Assembly (NCBI GenBank): GCA_048882505.1
Contig: JBHLRO010000010.1
Span: 90,001-122,000, forward strand
Length of the DNA: 32,000 nt
Source of the DNA: Candidatus Thorarchaeota archaeon
Lineage (GTDB): Archaea > Asgardarchaeota > Heimdallarchaeia > Hodarchaeales > Hodarchaeaceae
Reading direction: 5' to 3'
This document shows, piece by piece, positions 3,876-32,000 of the stretch; the stretch's first letter is position 1; each line of letters begins with the position of its first letter. The translations under genes were made by a program, and so were the position numbers. The notes below the pieces were generated by a model. The model saw nothing but the letters and a program-made list of their open reading frames with translations. It made no database searches and was not told where the DNA came from.

Positions 3876-3885
3876 CTATTAATAG
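3876..3885. promoter_or_regulatory. TATA-like palindrome CTATTAATAG, candidate promoter of the kinase gene (leaderless) and/or operator
   Basis: Perfect 10-bp palindrome. On the minus strand TATTAATA ends about 25 nt before the ATG at 3852, matching archaeal TATA spacing for a leaderless mRNA. Confidence 0.45.
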
Positions 3886-3908
3886 CCGCCGTCATTCATA
3901 GCTTAATT

Positions 3909-3917
3909 CTATAATAG
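3909..3917 (+). promoter_or_regulatory. TATA-like element CTATAATAG, candidate thiR promoter
   Basis: TATAATA lies about 30 nt upstream of the thiR start and has the same CTAT...ATAG arms as 3876-3885. Confidence 0.4.
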
Positions 3918-3937
3918 ACCTTTAGGCGCTACGAAAT

Positions 3938-3945
3938 GAGGGTGA
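3938..3945 (+). promoter_or_regulatory. Putative ribosome-binding site GAGGGTGA for thiR
   Basis: Archaeal-type GGTGA core immediately upstream of TTG-ATG (3946/3949). Confidence 0.45.
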
Positions 3946-3948
3946 TTG

Positions 3949-4842
3949 ATGAGATTTATATGTGAATTAGTGCCTGTAGCGTTCTTAACACCTTTTCGTC
4001 GGGCCCTTGCTCGTGAACTCTCCAACCTCGGATATGTCCAAACGAGAATTGCAGAAATTCTAGGTGTGTCACAACCAGTGGTTTCCTCATACCTATCTGC
4101 TGAGGCTTCCAGTCCAATGATTTTCAAACAGGCTATTGAGGATTTAGTAGAGAACTTGATGGTGGGGATCAAAGCAGAAACGCTCACTCCGATCGAACTC
4201 ATGACTGCTACCTGCGAAGTGTGTCAAAAACTGCGGAGCGCGGGGCCGCTTTGCGATGTTCATAGAAAACAGGGAAATCTTGATTTTCCAGTTGGGTGTG
4301 ACCTCTGTTTTCCCTCACAAGAACAGTCACTGACCTTCAGTAAAAATCTGCAAGCCACTATCGAATTATACGAAGCCGCACAGCGGCTCATTGGCGCTGG
4401 AAGAAAATTTGGGGAAATTATCCCTGAAATTGGATGTCAATTCATCTACACGGTCAATAAGGAAAGCATTGGGTTTCCAGGTCGAATTGTTCGGGTGAAA
4501 GGTCAAGGAAGAATTGTCTCCCCACCCGAGATTGGCCAGGGACCTACTCTTGCCAAAATCCTACTCTTTTTTCACCAACATGGTTCACCATTTCAAAGCT
4601 TAATCTCCTTGAAATCGAAAGGTAAAATATTGGACAAAGTTGCTGACATGGTCATAGAGCGTACAGTTGAAGGAGACAAAGATTGGACCAAGACTTTAAG
4701 CCAAATTCCCAAAGAAAAAGTTCGAAATATCCATGGGATTGCTGATACAGGGGGGATCGGTCTTGAACCTATATTATATTTATTTGGTCACACACCAGCA
4801 AAATTGGCTTCCTTGATCTTGGAACGATTTTGTGAGGATTAG
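3949..4842 (+). CDS. thiR: ThiR-type transcriptional regulator: N-terminal HTH, Cys/His cluster, C-terminal ThiN (thiamine-phosphate synthase)-like domain (alternative start TTG 3946)
   Basis: HTH QTRIAEILGVSQPVVSSYL; CEVC-x9-CDVH-x11-CDLC; ThiN-like motifs IPEIG, GFPGRIVRV, DTGGIGLEPILYLFG; adjacent to thiamine transport genes. Confidence 0.75.
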   Translation: MRFICELVPVAFLTPFRRALARELSNLGYVQTRIAEILGVSQPVVSSYLSAEASSPMIFKQAIEDLVENLMVGIKAETLTPIELMTATCEVCQKLRSAGPLCDVHRKQGNLDFPVGCDLCFPSQEQSLTFSKNLQATIELYEAAQRLIGAGRKFGEIIPEIGCQFIYTVNKESIGFPGRIVRVKGQGRIVSPPEIGQGPTLAKILLFFHQHGSPFQSLISLKSKGKILDKVADMVIERTVEGDKDWTKTLSQIPKEKVRNIHGIADTGGIGLEPILYLFGHTPAKLASLILERFCED

Positions 4843-5226
4843 GGGTCTTATTAGGATTAAGGGATAGAATGTATGGTGCTTGATAAGGTCAGGCCCCCAT
4901 AAGATAGAATCCCCCTCTGTTTTCACCTGGGCATACCTCTTCCATTGGACTTCATCGTTCCTGTATGAATTCGAAGATTAGGGGGCCATTCTCCCATCTG
5001 AGGCTCCCGCTTCAATTTAGAAACTGCTAAAAAGATAGAGATCAGAAATTCTTCTTAATTGATTCCAAAGAAACGTTCGAAAGAGGGTCGTGCCAAAAGC
5101 TTTCACCTGCTGAACCCGCCTTTAAGGTGTAAATCCGTGCGAAATACGTTGTCAGGAACTTGGCTATGTTCCTTGCAGCTTGTGTTCAACGGTAATCCAA
5201 GACATTTCGCTGCTTGACGTTTTCTT

Positions 5227-5231
5227 GAGGT
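5227..5231 (+). promoter_or_regulatory. Putative ribosome-binding site GAGGT for the giant gene
   Basis: ttGAGGTaaaatatATG, 7-nt spacer to ATG 5239. Confidence 0.5.
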
Positions 5232-5238
5232 AAAATAT

Positions 5239-5970
5239 ATGCCAAAATTAATCAAAAAGACTCATTCTTATCTTTTCAAAGGCCTAGTGATTTTCTCCCT
5301 TGTTCTACTTTTAGGCTCGTTTCACGCTCTCGAACCGAGTAATTCATTATATCCTGTAACCAACATCTTCAGTTTTGGTACAAAGGGCCCTATAAGTGAT
5401 GGGATCGATAATCATACTTTCATTTCCGAGACAGGGAGGCAGGTTCATGAAATCACTAGTTCGACTCCTGCCTATAAAATTCGGCTTATTTTTCCAGTTC
5501 CTGGGGAATCCGCGGATTTTTTAACGCTTCGTCTTAAGGCCCGATATACTGAGGAATTCACAAACCTAATCCGTTGGAACCAAAATAAAAACGTCAGTAT
5601 CAGCGTTTTTCCGTTTGAATCATCAATCATGGATGGCATCAATCAGTCAGTTCAGGTATTAGATGCCATGGAATTATATTGGGGAACAACCATCAAATTT
5701 CCATTCAATAATACGGCGTTAGAAGGACGAGATTATTTTGAGATTGCGTTTTTCATGTGGAACAGAACTAGCGTATTAACAGGACTGCAATTCGAAGACA
5801 TTACGTTCAAAAACACCCCTACTCCCCTTTCGGGTCAAAATAACCTTCTCATGGGTTTCCTATCCACCTCGGCCGTCTGTTTGTGGATTGCGTTTCCCAA
5901 TAGATTTTCACCACTTGTAGCTTGTTTTATAATGATTGCTCTAGTTATTGTCCCTCTCACCTTGACGCTC
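5239..5970 (+). other. N-terminal export/anchor module of the giant protein: signal/TM segment, ~170-aa domain, two-helix hydrophobic hairpin
   Basis: Basic n-region plus hydrophobic GLVIFSLVLLLGSF (~5281-5322); LLMGFLSTSAVCLWIAF (5845-5895); LVACFIMIALVIVPLTLTL (5914-5970). Confidence 0.7.
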
Positions 5971-8900
5971 CAAACAATTCGTTTTCTTGACAATGTAGAG
6001 AAAACTGAAGCAGGAGTTTCGAGATTTACCTTTTTTGGACGCGTTTACGAGCAAAGAGATCTCGGAAATGGGTTGTTTTCACTTCGAATGGTCAAAGATC
6101 TTTCTCGGGCTTTTGAATTACAGGCCTTATCAGGAACAGGTGATAGCGACATCTATCCTGGAGTCTTTAAAGATGAGACGGTCTCACAGGAACTTCAAGG
6201 AATTGAGACTGTTTTTCTTCAGCCAATTATGGATTCCACGGACTCAATAGATTCACCTGTAACTTATGGTTCGCAGTTTACTCCCCTCCTTCCGCGTTAT
6301 AAGTTTAGTGATATCACTGGTAATCCGGGATGGTGGAATACTAGTTACAAGTATGTTAGACAAGTAAATATTACCGCTAATTCTGCATTAGACACAAATT
6401 ACACAGTTCAGGCTGATTTGGATACATCAACTCCTGTAACCGCCTCAAAAATGCGAGCCGACGGGAAAGATCTTCGTGTTGCTTATTATAATCAAACAGA
6501 TTCGACCTGGTACGAACTGGATCGTGTTATCCTAAATAATAATTCACAAAAAACTGCTGTTTTCTTCCGTCTTCAAAAAGCAGTTTCAGCTAGTAGTTCA
6601 GACAATAACTACGCGATTTTCTATGGTGTTCAGGGTAATCCAGGAATTCCACCTAACTCTACGAACAAGATCTTTCTCGATAATGATGACTTTTCTAGTA
6701 AGAACTTGAACAATTATAACCTGGCTACGAATTGGGCGGCAGCCCTAGACACTTCTAAGCCAACAAATATAGGATGGTGGATCACTGAGGACATCGCACT
6801 TCATTCTGGTGGTACTAACGATTATTTAAACAGATCAAACCTTTTGACGACCAACAATGAAATCATTGTCTTAGGAAAGTTAACAACCAGTGGTGGGACG
6901 AAAACATCGATTGAACTTAGGTCCAACGCCTCCCCATCCGACGACCTCCGGATCACTCATCTGTCTTCATCGCCCTATCTACGGCTTGAACGCTATAATG
7001 GTACAATCTACACACTTAGTTCTACAACAGGAAGTTTTTCAACCACCACCTGGTATTTATACAAATTTAACTTCGTAGGAGATACTATGAAAGCCCGTGT
7101 ATGGGAAGCGGGTCAAGACGAGCCGTCAACGTGGAACCTAACTTATACAGCAAGCTCTGGAGACAACTTTCCCTCAAATGGACATCTTTTGTTCAAATCG
7201 AATGGAGGAATGGAGATCGGAATGTGGGCACTTCGAGCGGGACTGAGTAATGATCCTGCTGTAACGGTCGATCTGGAGCAGCAAGAACTGGTTAAAATCA
7301 CAGATATTCAAATCCAGAATACTGAATATAACGGGTCACGTTACTGGGACAACAATGACGGTTCTGCCGATGATTTCATTCGGATTAAAATTACCGCAGT
7401 TTGGAATGTGACAGGTGATCCATATCTGGGGGAACTCTCCGTAGGCCATAGCCTAAACCCCACCTACTTTGGAAGTACCTCAGGAAATGTCGGGGGTACC
7501 ACCACAATCGATGTGGAGGAAAATCCAATTGGCTCGGTGACTACATTTGATGGCATCACTGTGGGTGCAGCTATTGTGGGTCCTAACAATCCCTTTGGAA
7601 CTGATGTTTATTTGGATCCAGGCTTAACCTTCTCCGATATTGGCTGGGATGCTGCCGAACCTACTGGGGGAAGTTGGTCTACCGATTTTGACACTACTGA
7701 CAATACTGGGGATGGATTTACTCCTTATGGGGCTGGGTTTGGCATCTATGATGCGTTTTACGATGATGCTGCATATACCGCGGATGCGTCGGGATGGAGT
7801 GACGGAACGGGTGCTGGAATCCTCGAGTATTATATCAAAAGTTCAGCGGGGAATCTTGGCCCTGCTGATGCAGACGGCGTAGATGTGAGTACCACATTAC
7901 CTGCCGAGGGTGTTCATAACATTCAGTATGCCATCCAAGATCAAGTCGGAAACTGGGCGAATGGCAGTGCGATTATTAACGTTTACTATTCAACGGCGGC
8001 CCCCAGTGGATTCACTGTAGATATTAACGGGACAGGAAGTTGGACTCCGACCACTCCATCATATGCGTGGATCTCTAATCCTACTGCCATCACCTCGGGG
8101 ACACTCTACCTTGGCCAGGCAGGGAATTCCATCTGGAACATCACCGTCAATGAAGGTACATGGAATGCCGGTGGTGCCTGGCAAGTCATTTTTGAATCGG
8201 GCTGGGGCGGAACTGAAGTCAGTGATACGGCCGCTCCCTATTATTCCGCGAATTATCACTCAAACACGAACGCGGAAGCCGATATCAACACATTCATCGT
8301 TAATCGTAATGGAGTCGTCTCAACCATCACGATTCGCACTCTCTCGGACACATCCGCTCCAGAAATGGCCTCTATCAGCGTTACTGGTGACTCTCCGATA
8401 CCTGGTTATTCTGATTGGGACCAGGATGGAGCAGGGTTCAGTATCGATCGGGCTACAATTACTGAAAAGGGCGATTTTGGGCTTGCCATAAATGCCTCTA
8501 ATTCCGAGACTTTTGCAAATTACCGTTATATGGGAGGCACATCGCCTAGTACAGCAATCACGGTCACTCATCTTTGGATTCGTACCACAGGATCAGGTAC
8601 CGCTGCTGTAGCCCTGTATACAGGAGGGACATTGTCCAATCCGACTACAGCGACGAAGCAAGCCGAAGCGTTCAATGTAGCGGTGTCAGCAGGATGGAAT
8701 CGTATTGATATCCCAGACACTCTAGTCTCTGCAGATGCCATCGTCTGGATGAGCGTGGCATTAGATACCGGGCTTTACTATGCAACGTCTGGGAACGGAT
8801 TGAAGGGAGACTGGCAGGAGTCACGAGGCCGCTGGAGTCAATCGGGTGGATCTGATCCAACTCAGGCATCGCCCAATAATCCAGGATCAGGAAGTTTTGC

Positions 8901-11900
8901 TCCTGCCTGGTACAACATGTATATGGAATATGACGGCGGGGCAGGAGGCAACCAAGCGGTTTATGATGTGGATAATAGTAATCCGAGCTTCGATCTATCC
9001 AGTAATGATCCGTATACTTATCCCGTCGATGTCGGCGCCGACGGGACGTATACTTTTTATGCAGTCGCGGTCGATCGAGTCGGAAACAAGGGGATTGTTC
9101 GCTCTGATCTCGGGTTTGTTGACGAGACCGACCCAATCCTCGGAACGACCTCGTTCACCGATGCCGACTATACCAATGCCACTCACGATTATTATGATCA
9201 AGGAGTTCGTGCTACTGCTACTTATCGGATCCCTTTTACTGAAACAAATGTGTTTAATATCACTGTTGTAGACATCATTAATGCTGCAGATCGTGCCTCT
9301 GATGCGGCGGCAGGTCAAACGAGTCCGTTCGATTCAACCATCAGTTTGTCCAATCTGTTTAGCGATGGGGAGTATACGATTACAATCACCATTACTGACA
9401 AGGTTGGTCGAACAGATACCACTGTTACTGGGGGGCCGACTTCGATATTCCTAGATAACACTGATCCCGTTCTGACCGATGCTCTCTCCAGCTTCGAGGA
9501 AACCTCTGGCGAGATAACAAAAGTCTATGGACTTCCTGGATCCGAACTATTTTATTTTGCCAATTCGTTTACTGGTGGAGCGATTATCCGGCTCTACGCC
9601 ACGGGCACCGATAGCGGCTCAGGCGTTCGGGGCATCGATTTTGGGGTCTTCGGGGCAGATAATCCCGCCGAAGATACGGTCTCACCCTATCGGGGCCAGT
9701 ATACCATCAATAATGATGATGTTTCAGGCACCATTACGGTCACGATCTATGATAAGGTGGGCAATTCCGACTCGGGAATCATAACGGCAACTGAAGATGC
9801 TGCTAATCCTAGTATCAGTCTATCTGGGGAAACAGAAAGCAGTACCTTCCTGTATGCAGCTTACGGCGACAATACACAGGGAGTCTATGGTTCTTTGATG
9901 GGTACAACCCAGGGATATACCATTAGTGGAACGGCGTCTGATGCCACTGCTGGCCTACTTTCACTGAGTGATAACACCACTTTCGGTGATAATCCCAGTA
10001 ATACAGGTTCCTTGAGCAATTGGCAGTTTATTTACACGATCGATACCGCGGATAACGGCGATATAGTAGTTGTCTATACTGCAACGGATAACGTGGGTAA
10101 TAACAATACTGTAACCTATACGTTTTACGAGGATAACTCTAATCCGCTAATAACTGATCCAATGTCTATCTATCAGGAATCTGGGGATACAGGAGAAGTT
10201 TATGGCGATATCGGTAGCGATGTGTTCTATTTCTCGAATTCATTCAGTACTTTTGCCACTGTAACGTTTACAGCAACTGGCCTGGAAGCTGGCAAGGCAG
10301 GGATCAGGGGGATCGACTTTGGGTCATTTGGTTCTGACGATCCTGGAGAAGATACTAGTGCTCCCTTTACAGGACAATATACGATAAATGGTGCGGATTT
10401 AGCTGGATCTATCACGGTTACGATTTACGACAACGTCGGAAACAGCGGTTCTGATACAATTACCTGCACGGAAGACGCCGCACCCCCCACGATTAGTATC
10501 ACAGGGGAGACAGAGAGTAGCGCCTACCTTTATGCAGGCTATGGTACCGTCAAAGAAGGAGTTTACGGATCTGGCATGGGATCGTTACAGAGCTATACGA
10601 TTAGCGGAACTGCGTCCGATGCGGATGCAGGACTTCTTTCAATCACAGATGATCAATCTTTCGGTAACGATCCTTCCAATAGTGGTACGAATAGCAGCTG
10701 GTCTTTTGTGTACCAGATAGATGCTGCCGATAGTGGAAATGTCGTCATTACTTATACCGCGACTGACCTGGTTGGAAATACTGCAACTGATGCCTATACA
10801 TTTAATGAGGATAATACTAATCCCTCCATTACTGTCACCCAAGCGGCAAGCGCCACTAATGAATCCTCTATCTTCCTATATTATGATAATGTATCCGCAT
10901 TCGGCTATTACTCACCCAATATGCTTGGAGTTTTACAAACCTTCAATGTGGGAGGTACCGCATCTGATGCGTCAGGCCTAGCATCTGTTACAGATGACAC
11001 CACTTTTGGTAATAATCCTGCAAGAAGTGGATCCTTAACCAGTTGGTCGTTTGGTTACCAGATAGACGACGGAGACGCAGTTTATGGCACTTTTACTGTT
11101 ACGTATACGGCTACAGACAACGTCGGGAACACTTTCACAGATTCATTCCAATTCATATTTGATAACACCAATCCCACTGTTTCCGTGGACACAGCATACA
11201 TTCTCGATGGCGGTTCTCCCTATCTCCATTGGGATGGAGTAGGAAGTAAAATCTGGTATGGCGACGATATGCCCAGCGGGCAATCGCTTACCGTGGGAAT
11301 TGATGCGGCAGATGCTTCATCGGGCTTAGACTATGCCATAGCCGCAAATCATTTCGGAGGTACAGCGGCTCAACTAACGGATGATACAGAAGACACCAAC
11401 GGAGGACGTACGTACGACGTACCTGTTGTTGATATCAACGCAACAGACACTTGGACGGGAAGCTTTGGAATTACCGTTTATGATAATGTCGGAAATAGTT
11501 TACAAACCACAGTTGATATCAGTCGGGACACCGGAATTCCCTCTATCAGTGTGACAGGGGAAATCGAAAGCAGCGTTTACCTTTACGCTGGATACGGAAC
11601 AACCAAACAAGGAGTTTACTCTGGTTCTGGCATGGGCTCAATTCAAAGCTTCACTATTAGTGGTACCGCCTCCGATGCTTCCTCGGGGCTCTATTCCATA
11701 ACTGATAATTCCGCGTTTGGTGACGATCCTATTAATACAGGATCGAATGCGAGTTGGTTGTTTTTATATCAGATAGATAGTGGAGATAACGGGGATGTAA
11801 CCATTGCTTATACTGCGACTGATTTAGTGGGAAACACAGCTGGTGACACATACACATTTTTCGAGGATGGTACTAATCCCACCTTAACCGATAATATGTC

Positions 11901-26900: not shown

Positions 26901-29900
26901 GAGTTGTGTCTTGGATAATGATGCTCCTATTGTTCCCACGATCACAGGAGTTATAGAAAATTCAGAATACATGGCTTACATTGCACCCGTACTTTATTAC
27001 TCAAATGATCAACCGATGGGTCATAATTTCACAGTTCAACTTACGACAAGTGATGGAATCGTCGGACTACAAAATGCCACGGGAAGTGCAGATTTTGGCG
27101 GGGAAACTCCCAGCGACTTCTTTTATGTGGGTATGTATGAAATTACATATAATATAAGCCAAGACGAGACTGCTGGAGCTGGTAGTGAGGTTAATATTAC
27201 TGTGTACGACTTGGTTGGAAATTTCATTACCGTTACAATGATTTGTACGCTTGATAACATCGCGCCAACAACTCCAACCATATCGAGTATAATTGAATCC
27301 TCCGATTTTCTCTATTATGATGGCGCCATTCTTTATTATGCTAATACTGCACCACTGATGAGTGAAAGTTTTACCATCCAGATGACAACAAGTGATTCAA
27401 TTTCTGGTCTCCAAAATGCAACGGGGGAAACAGAATTTGGGGATACTCCAAGCGATGCAATATATTCTGCTGGATATGAGCTTGTTTATACCGTAGATAA
27501 CGGAGAATCTGTTCCTGACAATCAAATCACAATCATTGTGTATGATAACGTTGGAAATAACATATCGATTAGTTTAGATACAATTCTTGACAATACTGCC
27601 CCAACGGGCCTTTCCATTAATGCTATTGATGAAAACAGTGATTTTATCTATTATAATGGAATTGATGAGCTCTTCTTTTCTAACGACCAATCCATGAATG
27701 ATCCGTTTACTATCAGGCTATCCGCACTGGAATTTCGGAGTGGAATTCAAAATGTCACGGGCAGTTTCGATTTCGGCGAATCCCGAAGTAGCTTTTCAAA
27801 TGCCTCGGGGACATTCGATTTGACCTACTCCATCGCCAGCGGAGAAACAACAACGGCATCTGATGGAACCTTAACTCTCACAGTATATGATAATGTGGGT
27901 AATAAGGCCAGTCTAACCCTTACAGTGACATTGGATAATACTGCACCATCGCCGCCTTCGATCACGGGCGTTTCCGAATCTTCCGAGTATTTACATTATA
28001 ATTCTCCCATTCTTTTTTATTCCAACAATCAACCAATGAGTGCTAGTTTCACCATTCATTTTACGACAAACGATGTCGGTGCGGGCCGCTTAAATGCGAC
28101 AGGAGAAACCGATTTTGGAGGAGATACTCCGAATGATACAATATACGCTTCTGGGTACGACTTGATCTATACGGTGAGCCAAGCCGAAAGTGCCAGCGGA
28201 GGAGCGGTTGGCATTACAGTCTTTGACAATGTGGGAAACAGTGTCACCGTAAGTCTAACCTGTACCTTAGATAATGCCGCCCCGACTCTGCCTATAATCA
28301 CGAATATTGTGGAATCCTCCGAATATATCCATTATAATGCTCCCGTTCTATACTATTCCTCAGATCAGCCTATGAGCGATCAGTTCACGATCCAATTTAC
28401 CACCAGCGATGCCATAGCAGGCCTTCAAAACGCGACAGGGGAACTGGAATTCGGAGAAACCAACGTGGTAGATACGACTTATTCAGGAGGATATGAGCTT
28501 AATTACACGATAGATAACGGAGATACTGCTACTGGTGATCAAATTACAATCACTGTATTTGATCTGGTGGGGAACAGCGTTAGTTTGATATTAAGCGCTA
28601 TACTCGACAACACAAATCCGACATCCCCGTCGATTGTTGATGTTTTGGAAACATCTGAGTACTTGTATTACGATGGGGCTACTTTTTATTACTCCAATGA
28701 CGATGGATTAAGTGATTCATTTACAATTATTATTTCAACGGGTGATTCTGGCTCAGGCCTTAAGAATGCGACAGGAGAAACGGAATTTGGCAATACACCC
28801 AGTGACACAGTATATTCTGCTGGATTTGAACTTACTTATACGGTGGATAACGGAGAATCTGTTACTGGTGGTCAAATTACGATAACTATTTATGACATGG
28901 TCGGGAATACCGTAAGCGTTAATCTGGCTGCGACTGAGGACAATTTGGCCCCCAACATCTCCCTCTTAAACACTGCGTTACGGGAATCATCCGATTTCAC
29001 TTATTACCCACTAAATGGCACGCAGGTCCTCTATTATAGTAATAAGATGTTATCTGACGTTACAGTCTATATTAATGTGACGACCTTCGATGGATCATCA
29101 GGTCTTCAGGTAATGGAATTCCCATCACTATTCAATGTCGGCAGTACGTTTAATACGACAGTATACAACCAATCCTATGTTGTCTCTACCACCAGCGGGG
29201 ATAATGGGACATTTACTTTCAGGAGCTTCGATAATGTTGGAAATATCGCTATGACAACACTAGACATTGTGCAGGATAATCAGGCCCCTGATCAATCGGT
29301 CATTAGTGCGATTACCGAAAGTTCGCAATACCTGCACACGTCGGGAGTCGCGAAGCTATGGTATTCAGATCTGATGGGTGGGGTACCGGTTTCAGTAGGT
29401 ATAGATGTTAACGGAATCGATCAAGGAGGATCTCTCGCAGCGGGACTGGCGGTGATCACTTTCCCAACCATAGGCGATGAGTCTCCAGGAAATATCACTT
29501 CTGGTGCCTCTACGTATTCTGTGACCTATAATCTCAGTTCCACTGACAGTACCACAGGTGATTTGTTCTTCACGGTATATGATCGGGTGGGAAATACGTA
29601 TCAGATCCCTCTCGAAGTGATTAATGATATTACAGTACCAACGATCAGTTTTACCGATGTCACGAATCCAATATATGATCCCGATGCTAATGAATTGGAT
29701 AGCACAGGAAATTGGTATGATCAAGGTGTTCTATCCAGTGGATTCTCTGTAAGTTCCACACCTACGGATCCATTAAGTGGTTCCCGCCAAGGAAGTGGGG
29801 TATTTACCGTTTTTATTGATTGGGATAGCACCAATGATGTGGATGATCAATTGAGTATTAATGCGGGTGCAGATGGCGATGATGTTATAACAGGCTTGAC

Positions 29901-32000
29901 TGATGATGGGGACGGCAACATTGTAATAACCCTTACCGCCTATGATAATGTTGCCAATTCTGCACAAACCAGCATTACGATCCGATTTGACAATACGAAG
30001 CCGTCTGCGACCGATTCGACGCTGTTAGACCAGAATGGGCCTATCATTTCATTGTCGGGTCAATCCTCAGATGCTAGCTCTGGGGTTCAGAAGATCACAA
30101 TTTTGGATTACAACGGCTCACACTTCCCCACAATAGTCTCTAGTGGATTTTCCAGCTGGTCTCTCGACAATACATCAGCCTTAGATGGAACTATTCCAGC
30201 GGGTCAAAATATCGTAGTAAATGTGACAGTTTTTGACAACGTCAACAATAAGGATACCTATAATGTCACTATCACGTTCCATAGCCTGAAATTTCTTGTT
30301 TTCTCCCATAACATTCCGAAACGGGTAGAGATCGATGATCCCAATCCCCTGGATTGGAATATTACCATCGATTTCGAATATGATGGCACTTTAGCTGGCA
30401 GTGGCACCACAGTGATCGATCGGTTCATCGATCTTACCCAGTTTGAAGCGTGGATAAACGATACCTCCTTGGCTATTAAGCCAGGGTCCTTGGCGTGGCT
30501 TCCTGGCCCTCGACTTCAGTTTACTGTCATTCTTCCCAATAGTTCGAGCACTCCAGAGGTGTTAGAACACCTGACCATCGGTGAGACATACCTTAAAAAC
30601 CTCCGTGTGGAATGGAATATTACTACTCCCTCCATTGATGTCAGAATCGGTCATAATGTATCAAACGTTGTGTCCTACCATGATTTGGAGATCTGGTACA
30701 TCGGTGACGACCTAGATATTACAGAGACGGATAATCCCGATATCATGAATCTGGTACTACAATTCCGTAAGGATTATCAACCTCTGGATCCATTTTCAGG
30801 AGATCTAACATTCTTTGTCAATGGAGGCTCCGCCACTTTAGAAGGTGGAATTTCTCCTGTTGGTACTGGAACAGGCAATTGGAGTGTTCCGATTCGCCTT
30901 CCATCTGGTTTGACTCCAGGCTTGCATAGCATATCCTTTAGCTGGCGGTACAACCTTGGCGAATATTACTACGTCATAGACTCTAATACCAGCATTGATG
31001 TAGTTAATTACCATGACATAGACATTACGGTGGCTCTCCCCGCCCTGGATTCGTTAAGGATATTTGAAATCGATTCAGATTTCTCATCTTTGGTCTATTT
31101 CAACATTACTGAAGATAACGGTAATGGAAGTGGACCTCTGCCAGTTACAGGACGAGGTATCAGTGATCTTCTTGATTTTCGAATTCGGGGGCTAAGTCTC
31201 CTTTCTCACACTTCGAGTTTCCTGTCTGGGAGTGGGAATAGCGATTATTCTTTCAACTTTACTCTCTTTGATGCTAATACTACCGCGTCTTGGATTGGAA
31301 ACAACATTCTTACTTTCCGTATAAATACGAGTACAGGGTTATCAGATTGGGGATCCATTATCCTCATCGGACATGATTTGGACGTAGTGATAAATAGTAT
31401 CCTTACGATAGGTGGACTTGACATATTTGATCCTGATGAGCGTACAGAATTTGATATGATCATTCAGGTTCGAGAAGACCAAGGAAGTGGGCCTCAGGCG
31501 ATCTTGGGCCTAGATATCGGTAATTTTGTGAGACTTTACATGGAGAATGTGGGAGATCCCACCAAGAATGCCACTATTGGCTTCGTTGATAGTTGGAACC
31601 CGACTGTAAACGCCGGTGAATATACCGTTCGTTTCACATTAGAGGCCCTTGCCGCCAGCCAGCTTAGCCTCGGTCCAATTAGAGTAACATTCGAACTAAA
31701 CGACTTTGAAGGTCATCGCGCGTTTGATTCCAATACCGATTTAGATAGTAGAGATTTTGTTAACCTTTTGGGTTTGGAATGGATTAGTACACCCTTTGGT
31801 TTCTTTACATTCGATCCAGCTAATACTACTTCGGATATTACGTTCCGTTTGTCGTTGAATCAGGTTTTACAGGTCAACTTCCGCATTTACGCTCTAGATA
31901 CTGGGCTTACTCTTACCGATCCTATTAATGTATACTGGGAAACCCCGTGGAATACCTCCCAGCCCAATCCTCCACCAATCTTGAGATCTGGGAACGTTAC
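5239..32000 (+). CDS. Giant cell-surface Ig-like repeat (glyco)protein, at least 8,920 aa, 3'-truncated by the window end
   Basis: ATG at 5239 (MPKLIKKTHSYLFKGLVIFSLVLLLGSFHA...). Manual translation of the frame shows no stop through 31998 (...PNPPPILRSGNV). Coherent repeated beta-rich domains throughout; T/S/G/D/N/Y rich and K/R poor. Confidence 0.95.
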   Translation, partial: MPKLIKKTHSYLFKGLVIFSLVLLLGSFHALEPSNSLYPVTNIFSFGTKGPISDGIDNHTFISETGRQVHEITSSTPAYKIRLIFPVPGESADFLTLRLKARYTEEFTNLIRWNQNKNVSISVFPFESSIMDGINQSVQVLDAMELYWGTTIKFPFNNTALEGRDYFEIAFFMWNRTSVLTGLQFEDITFKNTPTPLSGQNNLLMGFLSTSAVCLWIAFPNRFSPLVACFIMIALVIVPLTLTLQTIRFLDNVEKTEAGVSRFTFFGRVYEQRDLGNGLFSLRMVKDLSRAFELQALSGTGDSDIYPGVFKDETVSQELQGIETVFLQPIMDSTDSIDSPVTYGSQFTPLLPRYKFSDITGNPGWWNTSYKYVRQVNITANSALDTNYTVQADLDTSTPVTASKMRADGKDLRVAYYNQTDSTWYELDRVILNNNSQKTAVFFRLQKAVSASSSDNNYAIFYGVQGNPGIPPNSTNKIFLDNDDFSSKNLNNYNLATNWAAALDTSKPTNIGWWITEDIALHSGGTNDYLNRSNLLTTNNEIIVLGKLTTSGGTKTSIELRSNASPSDDLRITHLSSSPYLRLERYNGTIYTLSSTTGSFSTTTWYLYKFNFVGDTMKARVWEAGQDEPSTWNLTYTASSGDNFPSNGHLLFKSNGGMEIGMWALRAGLSNDPAVTVDLEQQELVKITDIQIQNTEYNGSRYWDNNDGSADDFIRIKITAVWNVTGDPYLGELSVGHSLNPTYFGSTSGNVGGTTTIDVEENPIGSVTTFDGITVGAAIVGPNNPFGTDVYLDPGLTFSDIGWDAAEPTGGSWSTDFDTTDNTGDGFTPYGAGFGIYDAFYDDAAYTADASGWSDGTGAGILEYYIKSSAGNLGPADADGVDVSTTLPAEGVHNIQYAIQDQVGNWANGSAIINVYYSTAAPSGFTVDINGTGSWTPTTPSYAWISNPTAITSGTLYLGQAGNSIWNITVNEGTWNAGGAWQVIFESGWGGTEVSDTAAPYYSANYHSNTNAEADINTFIVNRNGVVSTITIRTLSDTSAPEMASISVTGDSPIPGYSDWDQDGAGFSIDRATITEKGDFGLAINASNSETFANYRYMGGTSPSTAITVTHLWIRTTGSGTAAVALYTGGTLSNPTTATKQAEAFNVAVSAGWNRIDIPDTLVSADAIVWMSVALDTGLYYATSGNGLKGDWQESRGRWSQSGGSDPTQASPNNPGSGSFAPAWYNMYMEYDGGAGGNQAVYDVDNSNPSFDLSSNDPYTYPVDVGADGTYTFYAVAVDRVGNKGIVRSDLGFVDETDPILGTTSFTDADYTNATHDYYDQGVRATATYRIPFTETNVFNITVVDIINAADRASDAAAGQTSPFDSTISLSNLFSDGEYTITITITDKVGRTDTTVTGGPTSIFLDNTDPVLTDALSSFEETSGEITKVYGLPGSELFYFANSFTGGAIIRLYATGTDSGSGVRGIDFGVFGADNPAEDTVSPYRGQYTINNDDVSGTITVTIYDKVGNSDSGIITATEDAANPSISLSGETESSTFLYAAYGDNTQGVYGSLMGTTQGYTISGTASDATAGLLSLSDNTTFGDNPSNTGSLSNWQFIYTIDTADNGDIVVVYTATDNVGNNNTVTYTFYEDNSNPLITDPMSIYQESGDTGEVYGDIGSDVFYFSNSFSTFATVTFTATGLEAGKAGIRGIDFGSFGSDDPGEDTSAPFTGQYTINGADLAGSITVTIYDNVGNSGSDTITCTEDAAPPTISITGETESSAYLYAGYGTVKEGVYGSGMGSLQSYTISGTASDADAGLLSITDDQSFGNDPSNSGTNSSWSFVYQIDAADSGNVVITYTATDLVGNTATDAYTFNEDNTNPSITVTQAASATNESSIFLYYDNVSAFGYYSPNMLGVLQTFNVGGTASDASGLASVTDDTTFGNNPARSGSLTSWSFGYQIDDGDAVYGTFTVTYTATDNVGNTFTDSFQFIFDNTNPTVSVDTAYILDGGSPYLHWDGVGSKIWYGDDMPSGQSLTVGIDAADASSGLDYAIAANHFGGTAAQLTDDTEDTNGGRTYDVPVVDINATDTWTGSFGITVYDNVGNSLQTTVDISRDTGIPSISVTGEIESSVYLYAGYGTTKQGVYSGSGMGSIQSFTISGTASDASSGLYSITDNSAFGDDPINTGSNASWLFLYQIDSGDNGDVTIAYTATDLVGNTAGDTYTFFEDGTNPTLTDNMSAYAEFVDTTEVYGVTGTDTFYFSNSFSSSATVEFTATGFDTGYAGVRGIDFGTFGGDNPVEDTSAPYIGQYTINNVDSSGSITVTIYDNVGNNDSGTITCIEDATNPSLSDPMSAYTEDSGDIADVYGVIGTNTFYFSNTIPTSAMVTFTATGSDTGGAGVRGIDFGSFGGDDPTEDTSAPYQGQYTLTNADATGAITVTIYDNVGNPGSATITCTEDSTNPSLSDAMSAYSEDAGDTADVFGNEGTNLLYFSNTIPTSATVTFTATGSDASSGVRGIDFGVFGENPAEDTSAPYTGTYIIDNSDTSGSITVTIYDNVNNSASGTITCTEDSTSPSLSDAMSAYNEISGEDTDVYGLIGSNTFYFSNSFSTSVTINFTATGSDSGSGVRGIDFGTFGADNPVEDNTAPYEGTYVIDNADTSGSITVTIYDQVNNFASATITATEDSTNPTLSDPMSAYSEDAGDLGDVYGIIGSDTFYFSDSFTSSATVTFTATGSDAGGAGLRGLDFGIFGGNDPIEDPSAPFTGQYVIDNASSSGSIQVVIYDNVNNSNIGTITCIEDAINPSGIILSSYLDLDDNTGDGYVPSDGTGTNTEAFYDEATFIADVSVTEAGSGILSLQLKRLGGSYGTNVPSGTNVDATLALGNNSIYYMIIDNVGNNATGFANVDVFYSTAAPTGMDIDITGTGLWSKTSPSYAWIFDSTDITSGTLYLGNVGNTNWGIVMDGSGNWNAGGEWKVIFEAGWGQATDITDTTPSFSTGNVYSSNIGAEADIWVDIVNRNGISQRIILTTTADTTGPTMASITVTGDSPVVSNWDQNGAEFNIDFATTSDGGSGANGWYVEYNNPVPRANWTTLDPYVYTNDVGDGSSNPYPFYAVPVDKVGNIGAGVRSDNGFIDETDPILGTTSFTDAGYTNGNENWYDHGTAGSATFRIPFTELNVYSISVVCTIASSDRASDAGIDQTSPFDSTITLLNTYPDGTYVITITVMDKSGRTDTTVAGGPTWINLDNTDPSISVSGESETSNFLYAEYGTIVQGYYGSGMGASLQDFTISGIASDTGVGVSSITDNTSFGNNPSNGGSPTSWSFLYQIDVADNGNVTVIYTASDYVGNTATTLYTFYEDNTAPTGYSLSLDPDTTTDIGYLPNTNYYDDDSVDVTTGGTITEIHSGLPSLRYTYRIGSNAWSPWSDVSIHQFTGVLDGTYNLEVMVRDNVGNNGTAQAASSSVTVDTDSPAKFNLTLTRVGSGFGANFNETLMELIFNSQKNDFFTANITSNGTSDIGNSGYWKIEWDKYSQFETASNITIAGLPESKNFNYLGDVNGTFLIRLINNAGNYQEWNITAIEVVATVTLTITEIVESSDFLYHDGIISHNYGYYSDKMGGTVVFTLRGTATTTSGGLMFTTDDNSTLSAANTGTESNWEFNYTFDSTTGSTYDTFLVIITGTDNLAFTGNTTFEFRYDNTNPTAPTIIGISESSVNLYYNSTDFIYSSDQAMTDPFTIQVTTSDNGVGDVGLYKANASSDFGAEVPEDSSYTTQYDLTYTVSQSETAGGDNQVIIAVYDLVGNNASVSLNCLLDDTPPTVTVTGESENSWYLYAGYGSGNEGVYGSLMTISLAYTISGTAVDTIAGLISLDDNTTFGDNPGNTGTLSSWQYVYVIDAADNGNITVVYSASDNVGNIGTTSYRFYEDNTAPTVPTQLITNPSGSPYLYLNSTARFYFSDQMGLTPVEVQISGTGSDALAGLKNATFPAHFGDSPAADLTPTSWQASYNIHGTDPEQTGPQTNINVFVYDNVGNVNTVTFTFKGDNSSPNVSLTGISEDALVYYLYVASNSLIYYSTVGSGNRNFTVTVLVQEPLAVLDAGVKNVSFPNVFTGSDGGINASSGGSHSRTWQWSYSIPISAIENGSFTITAYDQVNNSQSIDLEIYHDSAAPSAPTITDVLESSEFLYYSASTLFYSNDQVMSASFTIQLTTADLESGLENATGSADFGGETPNDSIYSGGYELSYVINQGETDGGDDVVVTVYDKVSNSITVTLTVTLDNTAPTGLSVNSVYEYGSEFLHVIGSTLYYSNDQTMSEDFTIEVLASDVDSGLLNATGEAEFGNSPGDISYLAGYNLTYTIDMGESAGGGNVIVWIYDNVGNNASISLITTLDNSGPTSITITNVIETSDFLYYDGAREILFFSNDQTMSELFTIQVTAVDPAAGIKNATGETEFGDSPVDTTYSAGFDLSYTIDLSEATSDGYVTVTIFDMCANSNTVDLNTTVDNVGPRDQKITQINDFGSKYIYLYNGSSLILYINNQTSSDYLFFIYVSDNEPANESGRYLAEGSLYFGEIPVATTYQYVLRYTLNQTENVDNGTLVITTFDRCNNSNSVGLTVQVDRTPPALVPGYSFNDFGSDYIHNNGTHFIFSSLMPFTQTIRISGSVTDIYASVNGSGIDHVDYLPAFGSSPTTTFGPSWIADYGINSTDSEHGSNGSVSFRVYDNVNNSRLIFIPYVSDTTPPSGLSIIDILEDLLPEYLHYNSTLIAIFYSHVRPEKGERKFTVRVSAADLGGAGLRNTSFPTIGVGFSTGGFDTSDADGFWNFSYTEDGSSGTFNGSLTVTVYDNVGNSNTVNFNVYSDFAPPAGLTLVELIEDSDFLYYDPGSETFYYSNSHSTPQPFTINITADDPNAVHSGLLGANGSVDFSETHSTVVFDGNFSLTYDVSNGESASGNDLTITVYDKVGNSADFHLSSILDNLAPSAPTITNVVENSYLLYYSAPTFYYSNDQTMSASFTIQLTTSDTLAGLRNATGSADFGGETPSDSVYSGGYELSYTISQGETDGGDGVLITIYDRVGNSVTGSLTVLLDNVSPTGSILTLLESSEYLYFNGTHLFYSNDQSMSDPFTIRVTSSDAASGLLNATGEDDFGDINVGDTSYSTYYELTYLVDSGDSASGAQVDIFVYDQVGNSLSLALSAVIDNDAPSSVTLSSLTGTDIANYLYFNGTHLFYSNDQVMSESFTLKLVVTELISGIKNVTGTLDFGTIPSTTTNVSGTFDIQYTVDQSETAGLDNQINISAFDNVGNVHSSFVLPVILDNTGPIIPAIQNVIENSEYLYYSGTTLYYANSHPTQSEKFSVNITASDTLSGILWINGSIDFGETPSDPDYAKGYFLVNYTVGFNEEASGSQIAFTVYDRVKNTNSITLNLNKDNTAPSGISITSVTENSEYIYYSLGTKILYYSSDQAMLGQPFTITIVAQDNVGGAGLFNLTGSTEFGDTPSDLTYVGEYSVNYIIDSFETNVSAIILSVYDRVGNLNNSITLDLKLDNAAPSAPSITGIVESSPYLYYSSPTFYYSNDQPMGHNFTIQFTTNDTLAGLQNATGSVDFGGEIPVDVIYSAGYEITYNVSQGETDGGNDVVITVYDLVGNSITGTLNVILDNAAPTVPTITDVLAPSEFLYYNGTHFFYSNDQPMSDSFTIQLTTSDALAGLKNATGSTEFGGETPVDTGYLSGYELTYTISSGETDGGDDVVITIYDLVGNSITGTLNVILDNAAPMAPTITGVLESSEHLHYSAPTFFYSNDQPMADSFTIQLTTGDSDSGLQNATGSTDFGGETPSDTSYSAGYDLIYTVDQSETAGGDNQIVITIYDQVGNFISVSLDSVLDNTGPINTNLVTVVIQKNIQNLYYANGTKTLYYSNDISVSDSFSVRVSAQDPSSGLQKANASEFGETPSTTDYSSGYYQLSFTVNTGESSPSFTVTVWDNVGNPSNIALTTVLDNNAPSAPIITGVIESSPYLYYSSPTFYYSNDQPMGHNFTIQFTSSDGAAGLKNATGSTDFGGEIPVDWIYSSGYELTYNVSQGDTDGGDGVTISVYDKVGNKVTDVFSVSLDNTNPTAPNINNVLESSEFLYYNALTLFYSNDQAMSASFTIQLSTSDSGAGLLNATGETDFGGETPNDLTYVGGYELTYVISSGETASGNQVTITVYDNVGNYDNSQSLACTLDNMVPTVPIIIGIGESSEFLFYGAPTFYYSNDQPMSDSFTIQLTTSDSGSGLQNATGSAEFGGEIPVDTVYATRYELSYTVSQFETAGGDNQIVLTVYDNVGNSVTGPLSSILDNVAPTVPIITAVYEGSDYIYYSGSILYYSNDQSMTDSFTIEFTTTDGSAGLQNATGSAEFNAEIPSDSSYSSGYNLSYTISQGETDGGDDVVITVYDFVGNKITKTFLVTLDNTAPSITLESHSSKIWYNTPGGITSYSGSVSDTLSGITSAFFNYSTDGGTTNTSFTATLGGGTWLDDDEITDTVNDNVTLIVYVWDNVKNVNSTTVEIWHDDTPPTITYNDPTAGSSTIFYNLNDNATTFDIDFGVTGGKTFYSGLVKAEYQTDDGMGWYTIFDNTGAPSLLDNTTNWKIERWNETLFNGVNTIDIRVTDAAGNIRTDIYSTGVSGFNLRLDTQGPVALSLSVKGNEIGISDPSLYDWAGSDFYLSFKFNSSSNITKFYIYSDQNTVIKSYLNKSGTEVFTWYEVGPGPVYHNYTTVDQLVFFDIGNTGNRSVYVRAENQAGINSSWIQVYLFVDEEDPTLTLTSITELNLTWTIHPDVLAGNGTLYFSDQMGASNSAGFDVTVNAADSGSGMTNGYVDFQAFEAIPAQTNTYTGTFSVGQSTTDRAWVRAYAIDASGRNSSSIAIVEVIRDTSAPTLPIITTIVENSEFLHYDSGSTTLYYSNDQPMSATFTIQLTTADLGGAGLANATGSADFGGEIPTDTVYSGRYDLSYTISQSETAGGDNQIIITVYDLVGNSRTKTLDSTIDNAAPSPPIFTGVVENSENIHYNGTHLFYSNDQLMDDLFTIQFTTSDGLGAGLQNATGTPEFGGEIPFDAIYSAMYELSYAISGGETAGGNNINISVYDFVGNYINATFKVILDNVAPSIPIITGVLESSEFIYFDGSTILYYSNDQSMSDSFTIQFTTDDALADLQNATGSSDFGEVNRVDTTYSAVYELNYTIDQSETAGGDNQIVITVYDMVGNSITTVMSCVLDNDAPIVPTITGVIENSEYMAYIAPVLYYSNDQPMGHNFTVQLTTSDGIVGLQNATGSADFGGETPSDFFYVGMYEITYNISQDETAGAGSEVNITVYDLVGNFITVTMICTLDNIAPTTPTISSIIESSDFLYYDGAILYYANTAPLMSESFTIQMTTSDSISGLQNATGETEFGDTPSDAIYSAGYELVYTVDNGESVPDNQITIIVYDNVGNNISISLDTILDNTAPTGLSINAIDENSDFIYYNGIDELFFSNDQSMNDPFTIRLSALEFRSGIQNVTGSFDFGESRSSFSNASGTFDLTYSIASGETTTASDGTLTLTVYDNVGNKASLTLTVTLDNTAPSPPSITGVSESSEYLHYNSPILFYSNNQPMSASFTIHFTTNDVGAGRLNATGETDFGGDTPNDTIYASGYDLIYTVSQAESASGGAVGITVFDNVGNSVTVSLTCTLDNAAPTLPIITNIVESSEYIHYNAPVLYYSSDQPMSDQFTIQFTTSDAIAGLQNATGELEFGETNVVDTTYSGGYELNYTIDNGDTATGDQITITVFDLVGNSVSLILSAILDNTNPTSPSIVDVLETSEYLYYDGATFYYSNDDGLSDSFTIIISTGDSGSGLKNATGETEFGNTPSDTVYSAGFELTYTVDNGESVTGGQITITIYDMVGNTVSVNLAATEDNLAPNISLLNTALRESSDFTYYPLNGTQVLYYSNKMLSDVTVYINVTTFDGSSGLQVMEFPSLFNVGSTFNTTVYNQSYVVSTTSGDNGTFTFRSFDNVGNIAMTTLDIVQDNQAPDQSVISAITESSQYLHTSGVAKLWYSDLMGGVPVSVGIDVNGIDQGGSLAAGLAVITFPTIGDESPGNITSGASTYSVTYNLSSTDSTTGDLFFTVYDRVGNTYQIPLEVINDITVPTISFTDVTNPIYDPDANELDSTGNWYDQGVLSSGFSVSSTPTDPLSGSRQGSGVFTVFIDWDSTNDVDDQLSINAGADGDDVITGLTDDGDGNIVITLTAYDNVANSAQTSITIRFDNTKPSATDSTLLDQNGPIISLSGQSSDASSGVQKITILDYNGSHFPTIVSSGFSSWSLDNTSALDGTIPAGQNIVVNVTVFDNVNNKDTYNVTITFHSLKFLVFSHNIPKRVEIDDPNPLDWNITIDFEYDGTLAGSGTTVIDRFIDLTQFEAWINDTSLAIKPGSLAWLPGPRLQFTVILPNSSSTPEVLEHLTIGETYLKNLRVEWNITTPSIDVRIGHNVSNVVSYHDLEIWYIGDDLDITETDNPDIMNLVLQFRKDYQPLDPFSGDLTFFVNGGSATLEGGISPVGTGTGNWSVPIRLPSGLTPGLHSISFSWRYNLGEYYYVIDSNTSIDVVNYHDIDITVALPALDSLRIFEIDSDFSSLVYFNITEDNGNGSGPLPVTGRGISDLLDFRIRGLSLLSHTSSFLSGSGNSDYSFNFTLFDANTTASWIGNNILTFRINTSTGLSDWGSIILIGHDLDVVINSILTIGGLDIFDPDERTEFDMIIQVREDQGSGPQAILGLDIGNFVRLYMENVGDPTKNATIGFVDSWNPTVNAGEYTVRFTLEALAASQLSLGPIRVTFELNDFEGHRAFDSNTDLDSRDFVNLLGLEWISTPFGFFTFDPANTTSDITFRLSLNQVLQVNFRIYALDTGLTLTDPINVYWETPWNTSQPNPPPILRSGNV
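6331..6627 (+). other. DUF2341-like domain within the giant protein
   Basis: WWNTSYKYVRQVNIT...NYTVQADLDT...KMRADGKDLRV...TAVFFRL...NYAIFYG matches the recalled DUF2341 pattern (WW..W.YR..I, M..DG.DLRF, IY.YYG). Needs HMM confirmation. Confidence 0.75.
6676..7281 (+). other. ConA/LamG-like (lectin-like) beta-sandwich following DUF2341
   Basis: DDF start, WYLYKFNFVGDTMKARVWEAGQDEPSTW, and a closing strand followed by DPAVTVDLEQ. The pattern is typical of ConA-like domains that accompany DUF2341; fold is inferred. Confidence 0.5.
7648..9453 (+). repeat. Four-domain block, copy 1 (second copy at 13579-14919)
   Basis: Shared in the same order: DNTGDG...AFYD...YSTAAP; PSYAWI...ITSGTLYLG...WNAGG.W.VIFE.GWG...VNRNG; MASI.VTGDSP...WDQ.G; DETDPILGTTSFTDA...QTSPFDSTI...GGPT.I.LDNTDP. 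Confidence 0.9.
8464..8931 (+). other. 156-aa inserted domain in a loop of an Ig repeat (jelly-roll/DUF4082-like, inferred)
   Basis: Present in block copy 1 between ATIT and DGGAGG; absent from copy 2 (ATTS|DGGSG). The block length difference (1806 vs 1341 bp) matches the insert size. Confidence 0.75.
9454..13578 (+). repeat. Zone of type-B (GVRGIDFG; 7 copies, 5 contiguous at 11866-13578) and type-A (ETESS.YLYAGYG...GVYGS.MG) repeats
   Basis: B units start at 9454, 10132, 11866, 12208, 12553, 12892, 13234. A units start at 9796, 10474, 11527, with further A units at 14920 and 16618. Confidence 0.9.
13579..14919 (+). repeat. Four-domain block, copy 2 (no insert)
   Basis: Colinear with 7648-9453; includes a 25-bp exact DNA match (14785-14809 = 9319-9343). 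Confidence 0.9.
21841..23279 (+). repeat. Near-identical 89-bp DNA pair (21841-21929 and 23191-23279)
   Basis: Only 2 mismatches (CAA CCC vs CAG CCG, both synonymous); the copies are 1350 bp apart. Confidence 0.9.
22087..22481 (+). repeat. Exact 59-bp direct repeat (22087-22145 and 22423-22481)
   Basis: TATGATCTGGTCGGGAATAGTATTACGGGAACCCTTAATGTGATTCTCGATAATGCTGC occurs twice, 336 bp apart. Confidence 0.95.
30280..32000 (+). repeat. Distal repeat class with H-[DS]-[LI] junctions, lacking DxVGN
   Basis: FHSLK (His codon at 30280), YHDLEI (30679), YHDIDI (31012), GHDLDV (31372); spacing 399, 333 and 360 bp. Confidence 0.65.

Follow-up and report, generated by a model that had tools for sequence, protein, structure and literature searches.

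A 10,062-codon gene at a Hodarchaeales contig end

We analysed a 32,000-nt stretch of DNA (the window) of a Hodarchaeales (Asgard) archaeon, C10:90001-122000, where C10 is contig JBHLRO010000010.1, and found that it carries most of a giant gene whose product may be a surface protein ending in a cytoplasmic longin domain. The source genome (G000) is a metagenome-assembled genome (MAG) of 4.32 Mb on 83 contigs with an estimated completeness of 94.6% and 3.7% contamination. The open reading frame (ORF) runs uninterrupted on the forward strand from an ATG at 5239 to the end of the window at 32000, i.e. over 8,920 codons, just as a preliminary description of this DNA had stated, and it was absent from the ORF track for the reason given there, the want of a stop codon, being listed only if open-ended ORFs are requested. 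Because of an in-frame stop at 5215-5217, ATG 5239 is the earliest start possible, and a Shine-Dalgarno-like GAGGT motif can be read from the sequence at 5227-5231, 7 nt ahead of the start codon. By our calculation the chance of 8,920 consecutive sense codons is about (61/64)^8920, roughly 1e-186. Extension along the contig, which the preliminary description had proposed as a way to find the stop and any C-terminal anchor, revealed both: the frame terminates beyond the window at a TGA at C10:125425-125427 (L002:5425-5427 in the locus numbering used below), preceded by the codons for a predicted transmembrane (TM) helix and a tail. Contig C10 is free of any N and ends 619 bp past this TGA. The whole product comprises 10,062 amino acids and 1.083 MDa, of which codons 1-8,920 lie in the window (5239-32000), so that the roughly megadalton size first proposed holds for the complete chain and the benchmark set there by halomucin (~9,100 residues) is exceeded. 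The protein has an isoelectric point of 4.05, 17 Cys, and 215 N-X-S/T sequons in total. The open frame, its conservation as a single frame in orthologs, and the substitution pattern described below show that it is one real, complete gene encoding a 10,062-residue protein.

In their DNA, most of the immunoglobulin (Ig)-like units that the gene encodes are no more than 70-80% identical to one another; the longest stretch repeated exactly within the gene measures 59 bp, and the best repeat pair is 82% identical over 230 bp. We found single-frame orthologs of 8,816, 8,856, and 10,431 residues in three further Hodarchaeales assemblies that belong to its genus. Their non-repeat landmark blocks succeed one another as in the giant gene and, for the 10,431-residue ortholog, at nearly equal spacing. 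Outside the cytoplasmic tail the orthologs are 33-53% identical, and the tail, with 65% identity, is the best-conserved part of the protein. A 3,411-residue fragment from an independent assembly (P0002) is colinear with residues 6650-10061 at 85% identity and with hardly any gaps. Comparison with the 85%-identical relative G016 gave an overall ratio of nonsynonymous to synonymous substitution rates (dN/dS) of 0.14 across the last 3,403 codons (Ig-like units 0.16, membrane-proximal modules 0.13, TM helix plus tail 0.05), and this compared part of the gene is under purifying selection.

Alternatively, the 30-kb frame might be chimeric, or its repeat array collapsed or expanded by the assembly, with the true gene being shorter or split. 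Such an artefact would fit the nature of the source, a contaminated MAG in 83 contigs, the short near-identical patches between units, and the assembly of the close relative G016, which lacks the middle of the gene and, when searched for it, yielded nothing but paralogous cross-matches. Against this stand the divergence of most units, the recovery from three other assemblies of unbroken frames, 8.8-10.4 thousand codons long, whose landmarks are ordered alike and spaced almost identically, the almost gap-free colinearity of the last 3,411 residues with an independent one, and purifying selection throughout, and we consider an artefact very improbable. Diverged repeats, orthologs, the colinear fragment, and low dN/dS are four indirect lines that together provide strong evidence that the assembly is correct and the gene is real.

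A homolog search, as the preliminary description had advised, yielded three full-length orthologs. Seven homologs of the giant's N-terminal head were found at NCBI, all of them partial, and the six named ones are labelled 'hypothetical protein, partial', which is a lesson for annotation; just one other full-length giant sharing this head is on record, without a name. In the closed 4.94-Mb chromosome CP070695.1 (G009) a head homolog with 46% identity over residues 6-326 is found at C1:4185994-4186956, where the open frame comprises just 1,336 residues, suggesting that the giant form is not universal in the genus or has been replaced there by a shorter relative.

The predicted cytoplasmic tail, its paralogs, and the downstream gene

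Near its C-terminus the protein contains a single strong hydrophobic helix (residues 9846-9870; L002:4774-4848, forward strand), which is followed by a basic QRFR sequence and conserved in all four orthologs, and which we take from its hydropathy as a TM helix. It precedes the 190-residue tail (residues 9873-10062; L002:4855-5424, forward strand), for which an AlphaFold2 (AF2) model has a mean predicted local distance difference test score (pLDDT) of 93.7, a predicted template modelling score of 0.89, and the longin topology beta2-alpha-beta3-alpha2. In the VIA comparison the model matches best an Asgard longin (8yqg) with Z 13.3 and folliculin (FLCN) in its active GTPase-activating protein (GAP) complex (8dhb_J, Z 12.8, root-mean-square deviation (rmsd) 2.7 Å over 134 residues), followed by Lst4, C9orf72-SMCR8, DENND1A, and NPRL2. 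Among Swiss-Prot models the top matches are SMCR8, C9orf72, DENND6, NPRL2, and Lst7, and the matched AlphaFold DB clusters include small archaeal entries named 'Folliculin/SMCR8 longin domain-containing protein'.

Across 59 aligned members of the tail family, G45-P46 (residues 9917-9918), R112 (residue 9984), E116, and R169 are invariant. The GP pair opens strand 2 (tail residues 45-52) of the model, and R112 is located in the beta4-beta5 loop; R9984 is a candidate equivalent of the catalytic arginine fingers FLCN R164, SMCR8 R147, and NPRL2 R78. The signature of GAP-type longins consists of an arginine finger and of a GP motif that opens strand 2 and is confined to this type, and both elements occur in longins of Heimdallarchaeia (PMC12290439). 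Fold and GP motif give good support to the assignment of the modelled tail to the folliculin/SMCR8/NPRL2 (GAP-type) class of longin domains. An exhaustive search of 1.84 billion representatives for this combination of TM helix and tail returned just 146 clusters, nearly all with the tail at the C-terminus of a long protein.

The TGA of the giant gene overlaps the start codon of the next gene in an ATGA sequence (L002:5424-5427, forward strand). This second gene is cut by the contig break, leaving an N-terminal part of 207 residues at the end of C10 (L002:5424-6044) and a C-terminal part of 940 residues at the end of contig C9 (L031:4212-7031, reverse strand). As the fragments match two parts (residues 17-199 and 583-1540) of orthologous proteins of ~1,540 residues, C10 and C9 are adjacent, with ~1.1 kb missing between them. 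A protein of ~1,540 residues comes right after the giant gene in every ortholog locus, and at least 10 genomes have kept the giant/small gene pair. The smaller protein is a paralog of the giant, with which it shares the membrane-proximal modules and the TM helix as well as the tail, which is 35% identical and retains the GP motif and the Arg; this tail is encoded at C9:124212-124781 on the reverse strand. A prediction of a complex between the two tails scored 0.00 and, run without controls, speaks neither for nor against pairing. The third gene of what looks like an operon (L031:1068-4205, reverse strand) encodes a 1,046-residue protein with a signal-like N-terminus that matches no Pfam family; its place in the ortholog loci is taken by a secreted protein of 818-917+ residues.

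Nine tail-bearing paralogs are present in the genome. Those on contigs C1, C4, C8, C17, C35, and C50 comprise 1,562-4,342 residues with tails of 29-37% identity, and the motifs FFDQ-GP-P-I, LSDRSFS, and ARGG-EN are common to their tails and that of the giant. A search with a profile of the giant's 110-residue unit gave no hit in the paralog ectodomains. Three of the tail-bearing paralogs (on C1, C4, and C50) directly adjoin genes for Rag-like GTPases; the GTPase gene on C50 lies at C50:3995-4528. In all, the genome encodes 17 Rag-like GTPases, one of them at C1:25217-25792, besides Arf-like ones. A 2,277-residue open ORF at a contig end (region C1:508819-515649, reverse strand) has last residues that are the first residues of an 823-residue tail-bearing fragment on C50, and the two look like another large surface protein split across contigs.

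The predicted ectodomain and the flanking genes

The N-terminus starts with a basic region followed by a hydrophobic segment (residues 10-31; 5266-5331) that is a putative signal peptide or signal anchor and is conserved in four orthologs, in line with the export signal noted earlier. The adjacent segment (residues 32-200; 5332-5838), which has a sequon density of 2.96% and no Pfam match, is conserved in the orthologs and would form a small extracellular domain. It is followed by a predicted TM hairpin (residues 203-219 and 224-247; 5845-5979; hydropathy 2.0-2.9), found in all four orthologs with a short basic turn that reads NRF, RRF, QQF, or RKF. The signal-like helix, this hairpin, and the single C-terminal TM helix are the hydrophobic features common to all four orthologs. 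The resulting predicted topology reads out, in, out, giant ectodomain, in: with the conserved hairpin at residues 203-247 and the C-terminal helix, the ectodomain of ~9,600 residues would be anchored at both ends and form a tethered loop. Two elements of the preliminary description do not fit this arrangement. The open-ended filament gives way to a chain in which a predicted TM helix leads to a terminal, conserved longin domain of the folliculin type in the cytoplasm, and on this topology the free rod of ~0.25 micron would become a loop with about half the proposed reach. From ~4 nm per beta-sandwich unit we infer a contour length of ~0.3 micron, of which a doubly anchored loop could span about half.

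The ectodomain has an acidic composition in which Thr, Ser, and Asn are abundant. It contains 210 sequons, as compared to 152 ± 11 in shuffled sequences, and the tail contains none; in 26 of 48 Ig-like units a sequon (conserved NAT) occupies one and the same alignment column. The enrichment outside, the lack of sequons in the tail, and the shared column support an extracellular, probably N-glycosylated array.

Two domains of the head had been proposed from the sequence, and both gained support. A DUF2341-like domain (residues 365-480; 6331-6678) is 41% identical (E 7e-22) to residues 27-142 of P0154, a protein whose own PF10102 (DUF2341) match at residues 73-157 overlaps this region; on the giant itself PF10102 gave no direct hit at E<=1. 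The lectin-like domain (residues ~510-669; 6766-7245) adopts a ConA/galectin-like jelly-roll fold in the AF2 model; the VIA comparison matches it to the CBM66 domain 4b1m with Z 15.4 (rmsd 3.0 Å, 140 residues) and to galectins, ERGIC-53, and legume lectins with Z 12-15. Neither PF13385 nor any other Pfam family hit residues 470-700 at E<=1, and a Pfam scan of the head (residues 30-700) assigned no family.

The remainder of the ectodomain is mainly built of Ig-like units, which were counted with a profile hidden Markov model (HMM) constructed from the protein's own units. It detects 54 canonical units of ~110 residues in three arrays, besides which there are ~15 divergent ones, and the conserved half-motif T-V-x-D-x-V-G-N occurs 69 times, divergent copies included, in agreement with the estimate of about 65 tandem units made beforehand. 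The arrays are interspersed with divergent Ig-like blocks, one of which, of 450-600 residues, is duplicated. Its first copy (residues 805-1420; 7651-9498) is 41-49% identical to the second (residues 2782-3231; 13582-14931) and carries Big_13 matches at residues 1329-1396 (28.7 and 30.7 bits, cut-off 27). One unit of the first copy harbours a Gly/Ala/Trp-rich insert of 156 residues (residues 1076-1231; 8464-8931) that is missing from the second copy in the pairwise alignment and has no Pfam match; it is encoded by GC-rich DNA, with a GC content of 0.495 in 8001-10000. An antisense ORF of 154 residues at 8672-9136, in the region of the insert, is probably spurious.

Array I (residues 1422-2781; 9502-13581) comprises 12 units of ~110 residues and lies between the two block copies. 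Array II (residues 3232-6522; 14932-24804) comprises ~28 units with a divergent stretch at residues 3342-3566, and is separated by a further divergent Ig-like block (residues 6523-6770; 24805-25548) from array III (residues 6771-8348; 25549-30282), which has ~14 units, one of them with a DUF7743 match above the cut-off, and is colinear with fragment P0002 at 85% identity. Taken singly, the units have weak Pfam matches, most of them sub-threshold, to DUF7743 (14/48) and Big_13 (9/48) as well as to Big_7, Big_9, and Big_15, and a search of PDB sequences with the unit profile gave nothing significant.

The last ~1,500 residues of the ectodomain (residues 8349-9845; 30283-32000 and onward to L002:4773) consist of membrane-proximal beta-rich modules that start within the window and differ in class from the Ig-like units. 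The preliminary description had listed a further repeat class; a different class of module was confirmed here, but no clean second repeat family could be defined, since HMMs built from the region stayed single-copy or drifted to the main Ig class. A Pfam scan of the C-terminal 1,808 residues assigned no family, and the ESM Atlas gave weak leads only, to archaeal Big_3_5/MG4 proteins.

The neighbours of the giant gene are housekeeping genes, namely those for a thiamine-type ATP-binding cassette (ABC) transporter, an APH kinase, ThiN, LysRS, and PPDK. Upstream, at window positions 95-4842, lie genes for an ABC permease (570 residues), an ABC ATPase (353 residues), a kinase of the APH/choline-kinase fold (opposite strand), and a ThiN-domain protein whose N-terminal part is helix-turn-helix-like; a solute-binding protein is encoded just before the window, and the set at 95-4842 looks like a thiamine uptake or salvage cluster. 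A neighbouring gene for a 244-residue protein of an Asgard-specific family (L032:6893-7624), with weak ESM Atlas leads (0.79-0.84) to Roadblock/LAMTOR2 and Fuz_longin_1, was considered as a partner and rejected, as it is non-syntenic with the giant gene in five relatives. At the far end of the contig (C10:3-5153, reverse strand) a 1,717-residue ORF that runs off the contig start looks like another Ig-like surface protein.

In size the giant is not unique. On the reverse strand of contig C14 (reverse-complement 47114-91300) the same genome has a stop-to-stop ORF of 14,729 residues with an N-terminal signal-like helix and no other TM helix; it is unrelated to the giant, containing none of its Ig-like units and showing no BLAST similarity. 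Surveys list about 23 Asgard proteins of at least 5,000 residues, and the commonest architecture of huge archaeal proteins, whose function is unknown, starts with a lectin domain (PMC11573180).

Proposed function and relation to known systems

We consider it moderately probable that the gene encodes a giant glycosylated, doubly anchored lectin/Ig surface protein ending in a cytoplasmic GAP-type longin domain, and thus a possible receptor that couples binding outside the cell to GTPase control inside. The signal peptide would be followed by the small glycosylated domain, after which the TM hairpin would bring the chain back outside; a sugar-binding-type head (DUF2341-like plus ConA/galectin-like lectin), ~65-70 Ig-like units, and ~1,500 residues of membrane-proximal modules would then make up the ectodomain, and a single TM helix would lead to the 190-residue cytoplasmic longin domain. 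The ectodomain may bind glycans or the surfaces of partner cells, and the tail may recruit or regulate a Rag- or Arf-like small GTPase at the contact site; an adhesin or spacer role in partner contact is purely conjectural. Eukaryotic longin GAPs act as longin-longin heterodimers, and for this reason we suspect the translationally coupled 1,540-residue paralog with the same tail as a partner that probably acts jointly with the giant. The cytoplasmic tail being the most constrained part of the protein argues for a role in signalling or GTPase control rather than that of a passive spacer.

Several findings weigh against this proposal. No GTPase gene is located within ~36 kb of the giant locus. 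Pfam Folliculin (PF11704) scores 18.1 bits on the tail (E 0.0025), which is under the cut-off of 23.3, and a search of PDB sequences with the tail-family profile did not reach FLCN, giving chance helical matches only. The DENN module that comes after the longin domain in FLCN is absent, the chain ending ~10 residues past the longin helices. Outside the cell, the Ig fold of the units is assigned from weak Pfam matches, and the AF2 model of the head is of moderate confidence (mean pLDDT 62, local pLDDT ~78 in the lectin part). The middle of the gene (residues ~2,400-6,650) is backed by orthologs of 40-50% identity only. Finally, the TM topology was derived from hydropathy, and the loop model would not hold if cleavage removed the N-terminal part.

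The main rival explanation is a passive surface coat or spacer, similar to a glycocalyx or to halomucin, or a tether for protrusions or partner cells, in which the longin tail only anchors, sorts, or oligomerises the protein. Structural surface proteins typically have such a size, acidity, and heavy load of sequons, and such Ig and lectin domains; these features and the distance from any GTPase gene are compatible with this explanation; moreover, lectin-first huge proteins without known function are common in archaea (PMC11573180), and cultured Hodarchaeales have surface filaments and protrusions (bioRxiv 10.1101/2025.02.26.640444). Against a merely structural anchor stand a tail that is the most constrained part of the chain (dN/dS 0.05, 65% identity) and in which the GAP-type-specific GP motif and the Arg are invariant in 59 members, and tail-bearing paralogs that adjoin Rag-like GTPase genes; we regard a passive coat as possible but rather unlikely. 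The tail could also serve a surface receptor as another type of GTPase platform, i.e. as a guanine nucleotide exchange factor (GEF), effector, or scaffold comparable to DENN, Mon1-Ccz1, or Roadblock-longin proteins. Most longin domains are indeed GEFs or scaffolds, DENND1A, DENND6, AVL9, TRAPP, and Fuzzy are also among the fold matches, and the top match overall, a Roadblock-longin protein from an Asgard archaeon, is of unknown activity. Yet FLCN outranks the DENN, TRAPP, and SNARE longins (Z 12.8 vs Z 10 or less) and the GP motif, invariant here, occurs only in GAP-type longins (PMC12290439), which makes a platform other than a GAP distinctly unlikely.

Least credible of all, with barely any chance of being correct, is that the locus is cargo of a mobile element like the 'aloposons' of Heimdallarchaeum with their tandem giant genes (Otus/Ephialtes). 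The locus resembles these in its tandem of large surface-protein genes (10,062, ~1,540, and 1,046 residues), and many giant genes exist in Asgard genomes, some of them on mobile elements (Wu et al. 2022, PMC8813620). Aloposons integrate next to tRNA genes and have four upstream genes including a ParA/MinD ATPase (PMC8813620), whereas a search of ~16 kb upstream and ~17 kb downstream of the giant gene gave no tRNA gene, and no ParA/MinD or integrase is among its housekeeping neighbours. In addition, the locus is similar to its flanks in GC content, and both the giant gene and its partner show vertical conservation throughout the genus, and we therefore rejected the aloposon reading.

The proposed coupling of the ectodomain to GTPase control can be carried further: the ectodomain would sense glycans or a partner cell, and the tail, paired with that of the co-translated paralog, would directly switch Rag- or Arf-like GTPases at the plasma membrane. 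If so, the lysosomal longin GAPs of eukaryotes (FLCN, GATOR1, C9orf72-SMCR8) would descend from the tails of such archaeal surface receptors. This extended scenario is unlikely as it stands. Few known archaea are as closely related to eukaryotes as Hodarchaeales, whose Rag/Arf-like GTPases and longin proteins have been discussed as the seeds from which endomembrane and nutrient-signalling systems arose. The family of tail-bearing surface proteins, of which the giant (1.08 MDa) is the largest found here, offers a testable link between the cell surface and GTPase switches, with G9917-P9918 and R9984 as candidate functional residues. Two Hodarchaeales strains, HC1 and SC1, are in culture (bioRxiv 10.1101/2025.02.26.640444). 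FLCN/SMCR8-type longins of Heimdallarchaeia have already been published (PMC12290439); the combination of a GAP-type longin behind a TM helix on a megadalton ectodomain, a double anchor, and a conserved giant/small gene pair was not found in the papers searched.

Among known systems, the eukaryotic longin GAP subunits FLCN (yeast Lst7), SMCR8 (of C9orf72-SMCR8-WDR41), and NPRL2 (of GATOR1) resemble the tail in the longin fold, the GP motif at the start of beta2, and, at a sub-threshold level, the PF11704 match; the conserved Arg in the beta4-beta5 loop is a candidate counterpart of their arginine finger. FLCN is the catalytic subunit of the FLCN-FNIP GAP for RagC/D. Unlike FLCN, the giant carries its longin domain as the predicted cytoplasmic tail of a membrane protein, right after the TM helix and without a DENN module, and an FNIP-like partner was not identified. 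Of the giant surface proteins, halomucin from Haloquadratum walsbyi is likewise a very large, acidic, exported archaeal protein. The bacterial Big_13-type RTX adhesins LapA, SiiE, and MpIBP have, as is predicted for the giant, long arrays of ~100-residue beta-sandwiches with a D-x-x-G-N motif that extend a distal ligand-binding region, and they are exported by type I secretion and held in the outer membrane at one end. In contrast, the giant comes from an archaeon, and it is apparently exported through Sec, predicted to be anchored at both ends, and equipped with a cytoplasmic domain, its Big_13 matches lying at about the cut-off.

The tail-bearing paralogs of the giant in the same genome share the TM helix and the longin tail but have ectodomains without the 110-residue unit, and three of them, in contrast to the giant, adjoin Rag-like GTPase genes. 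The Lokiarchaeota Roadblock-Longin protein 8yqg and the 'Folliculin/SMCR8 longin domain-containing' proteins of Asgard archaea (PMC12290439) agree with the tail in fold class, in the GP/Arg signature with its putative arginine finger, and in phylum. The matched AlphaFold DB cluster representatives are proteins of 200-500 residues with an N-terminal longin domain, whereas the longin of the giant is predicted to be membrane-tethered behind a megadalton ectodomain; the word 'transmembrane' appears nowhere in the 2025 paper on these longins (PMC12290439). With the huge archaeal proteins in which an N-terminal Laminin_G_3/ConA-like domain is followed by Ig-like repeats (PMC11573180), the giant has in common that it is very large, acidic, probably exported, and headed by a lectin-type domain, and it adds to this architecture a predicted hairpin of TM helices, a further TM helix near the C-terminus, and, on the cytoplasmic side, a conserved domain of a signalling type.

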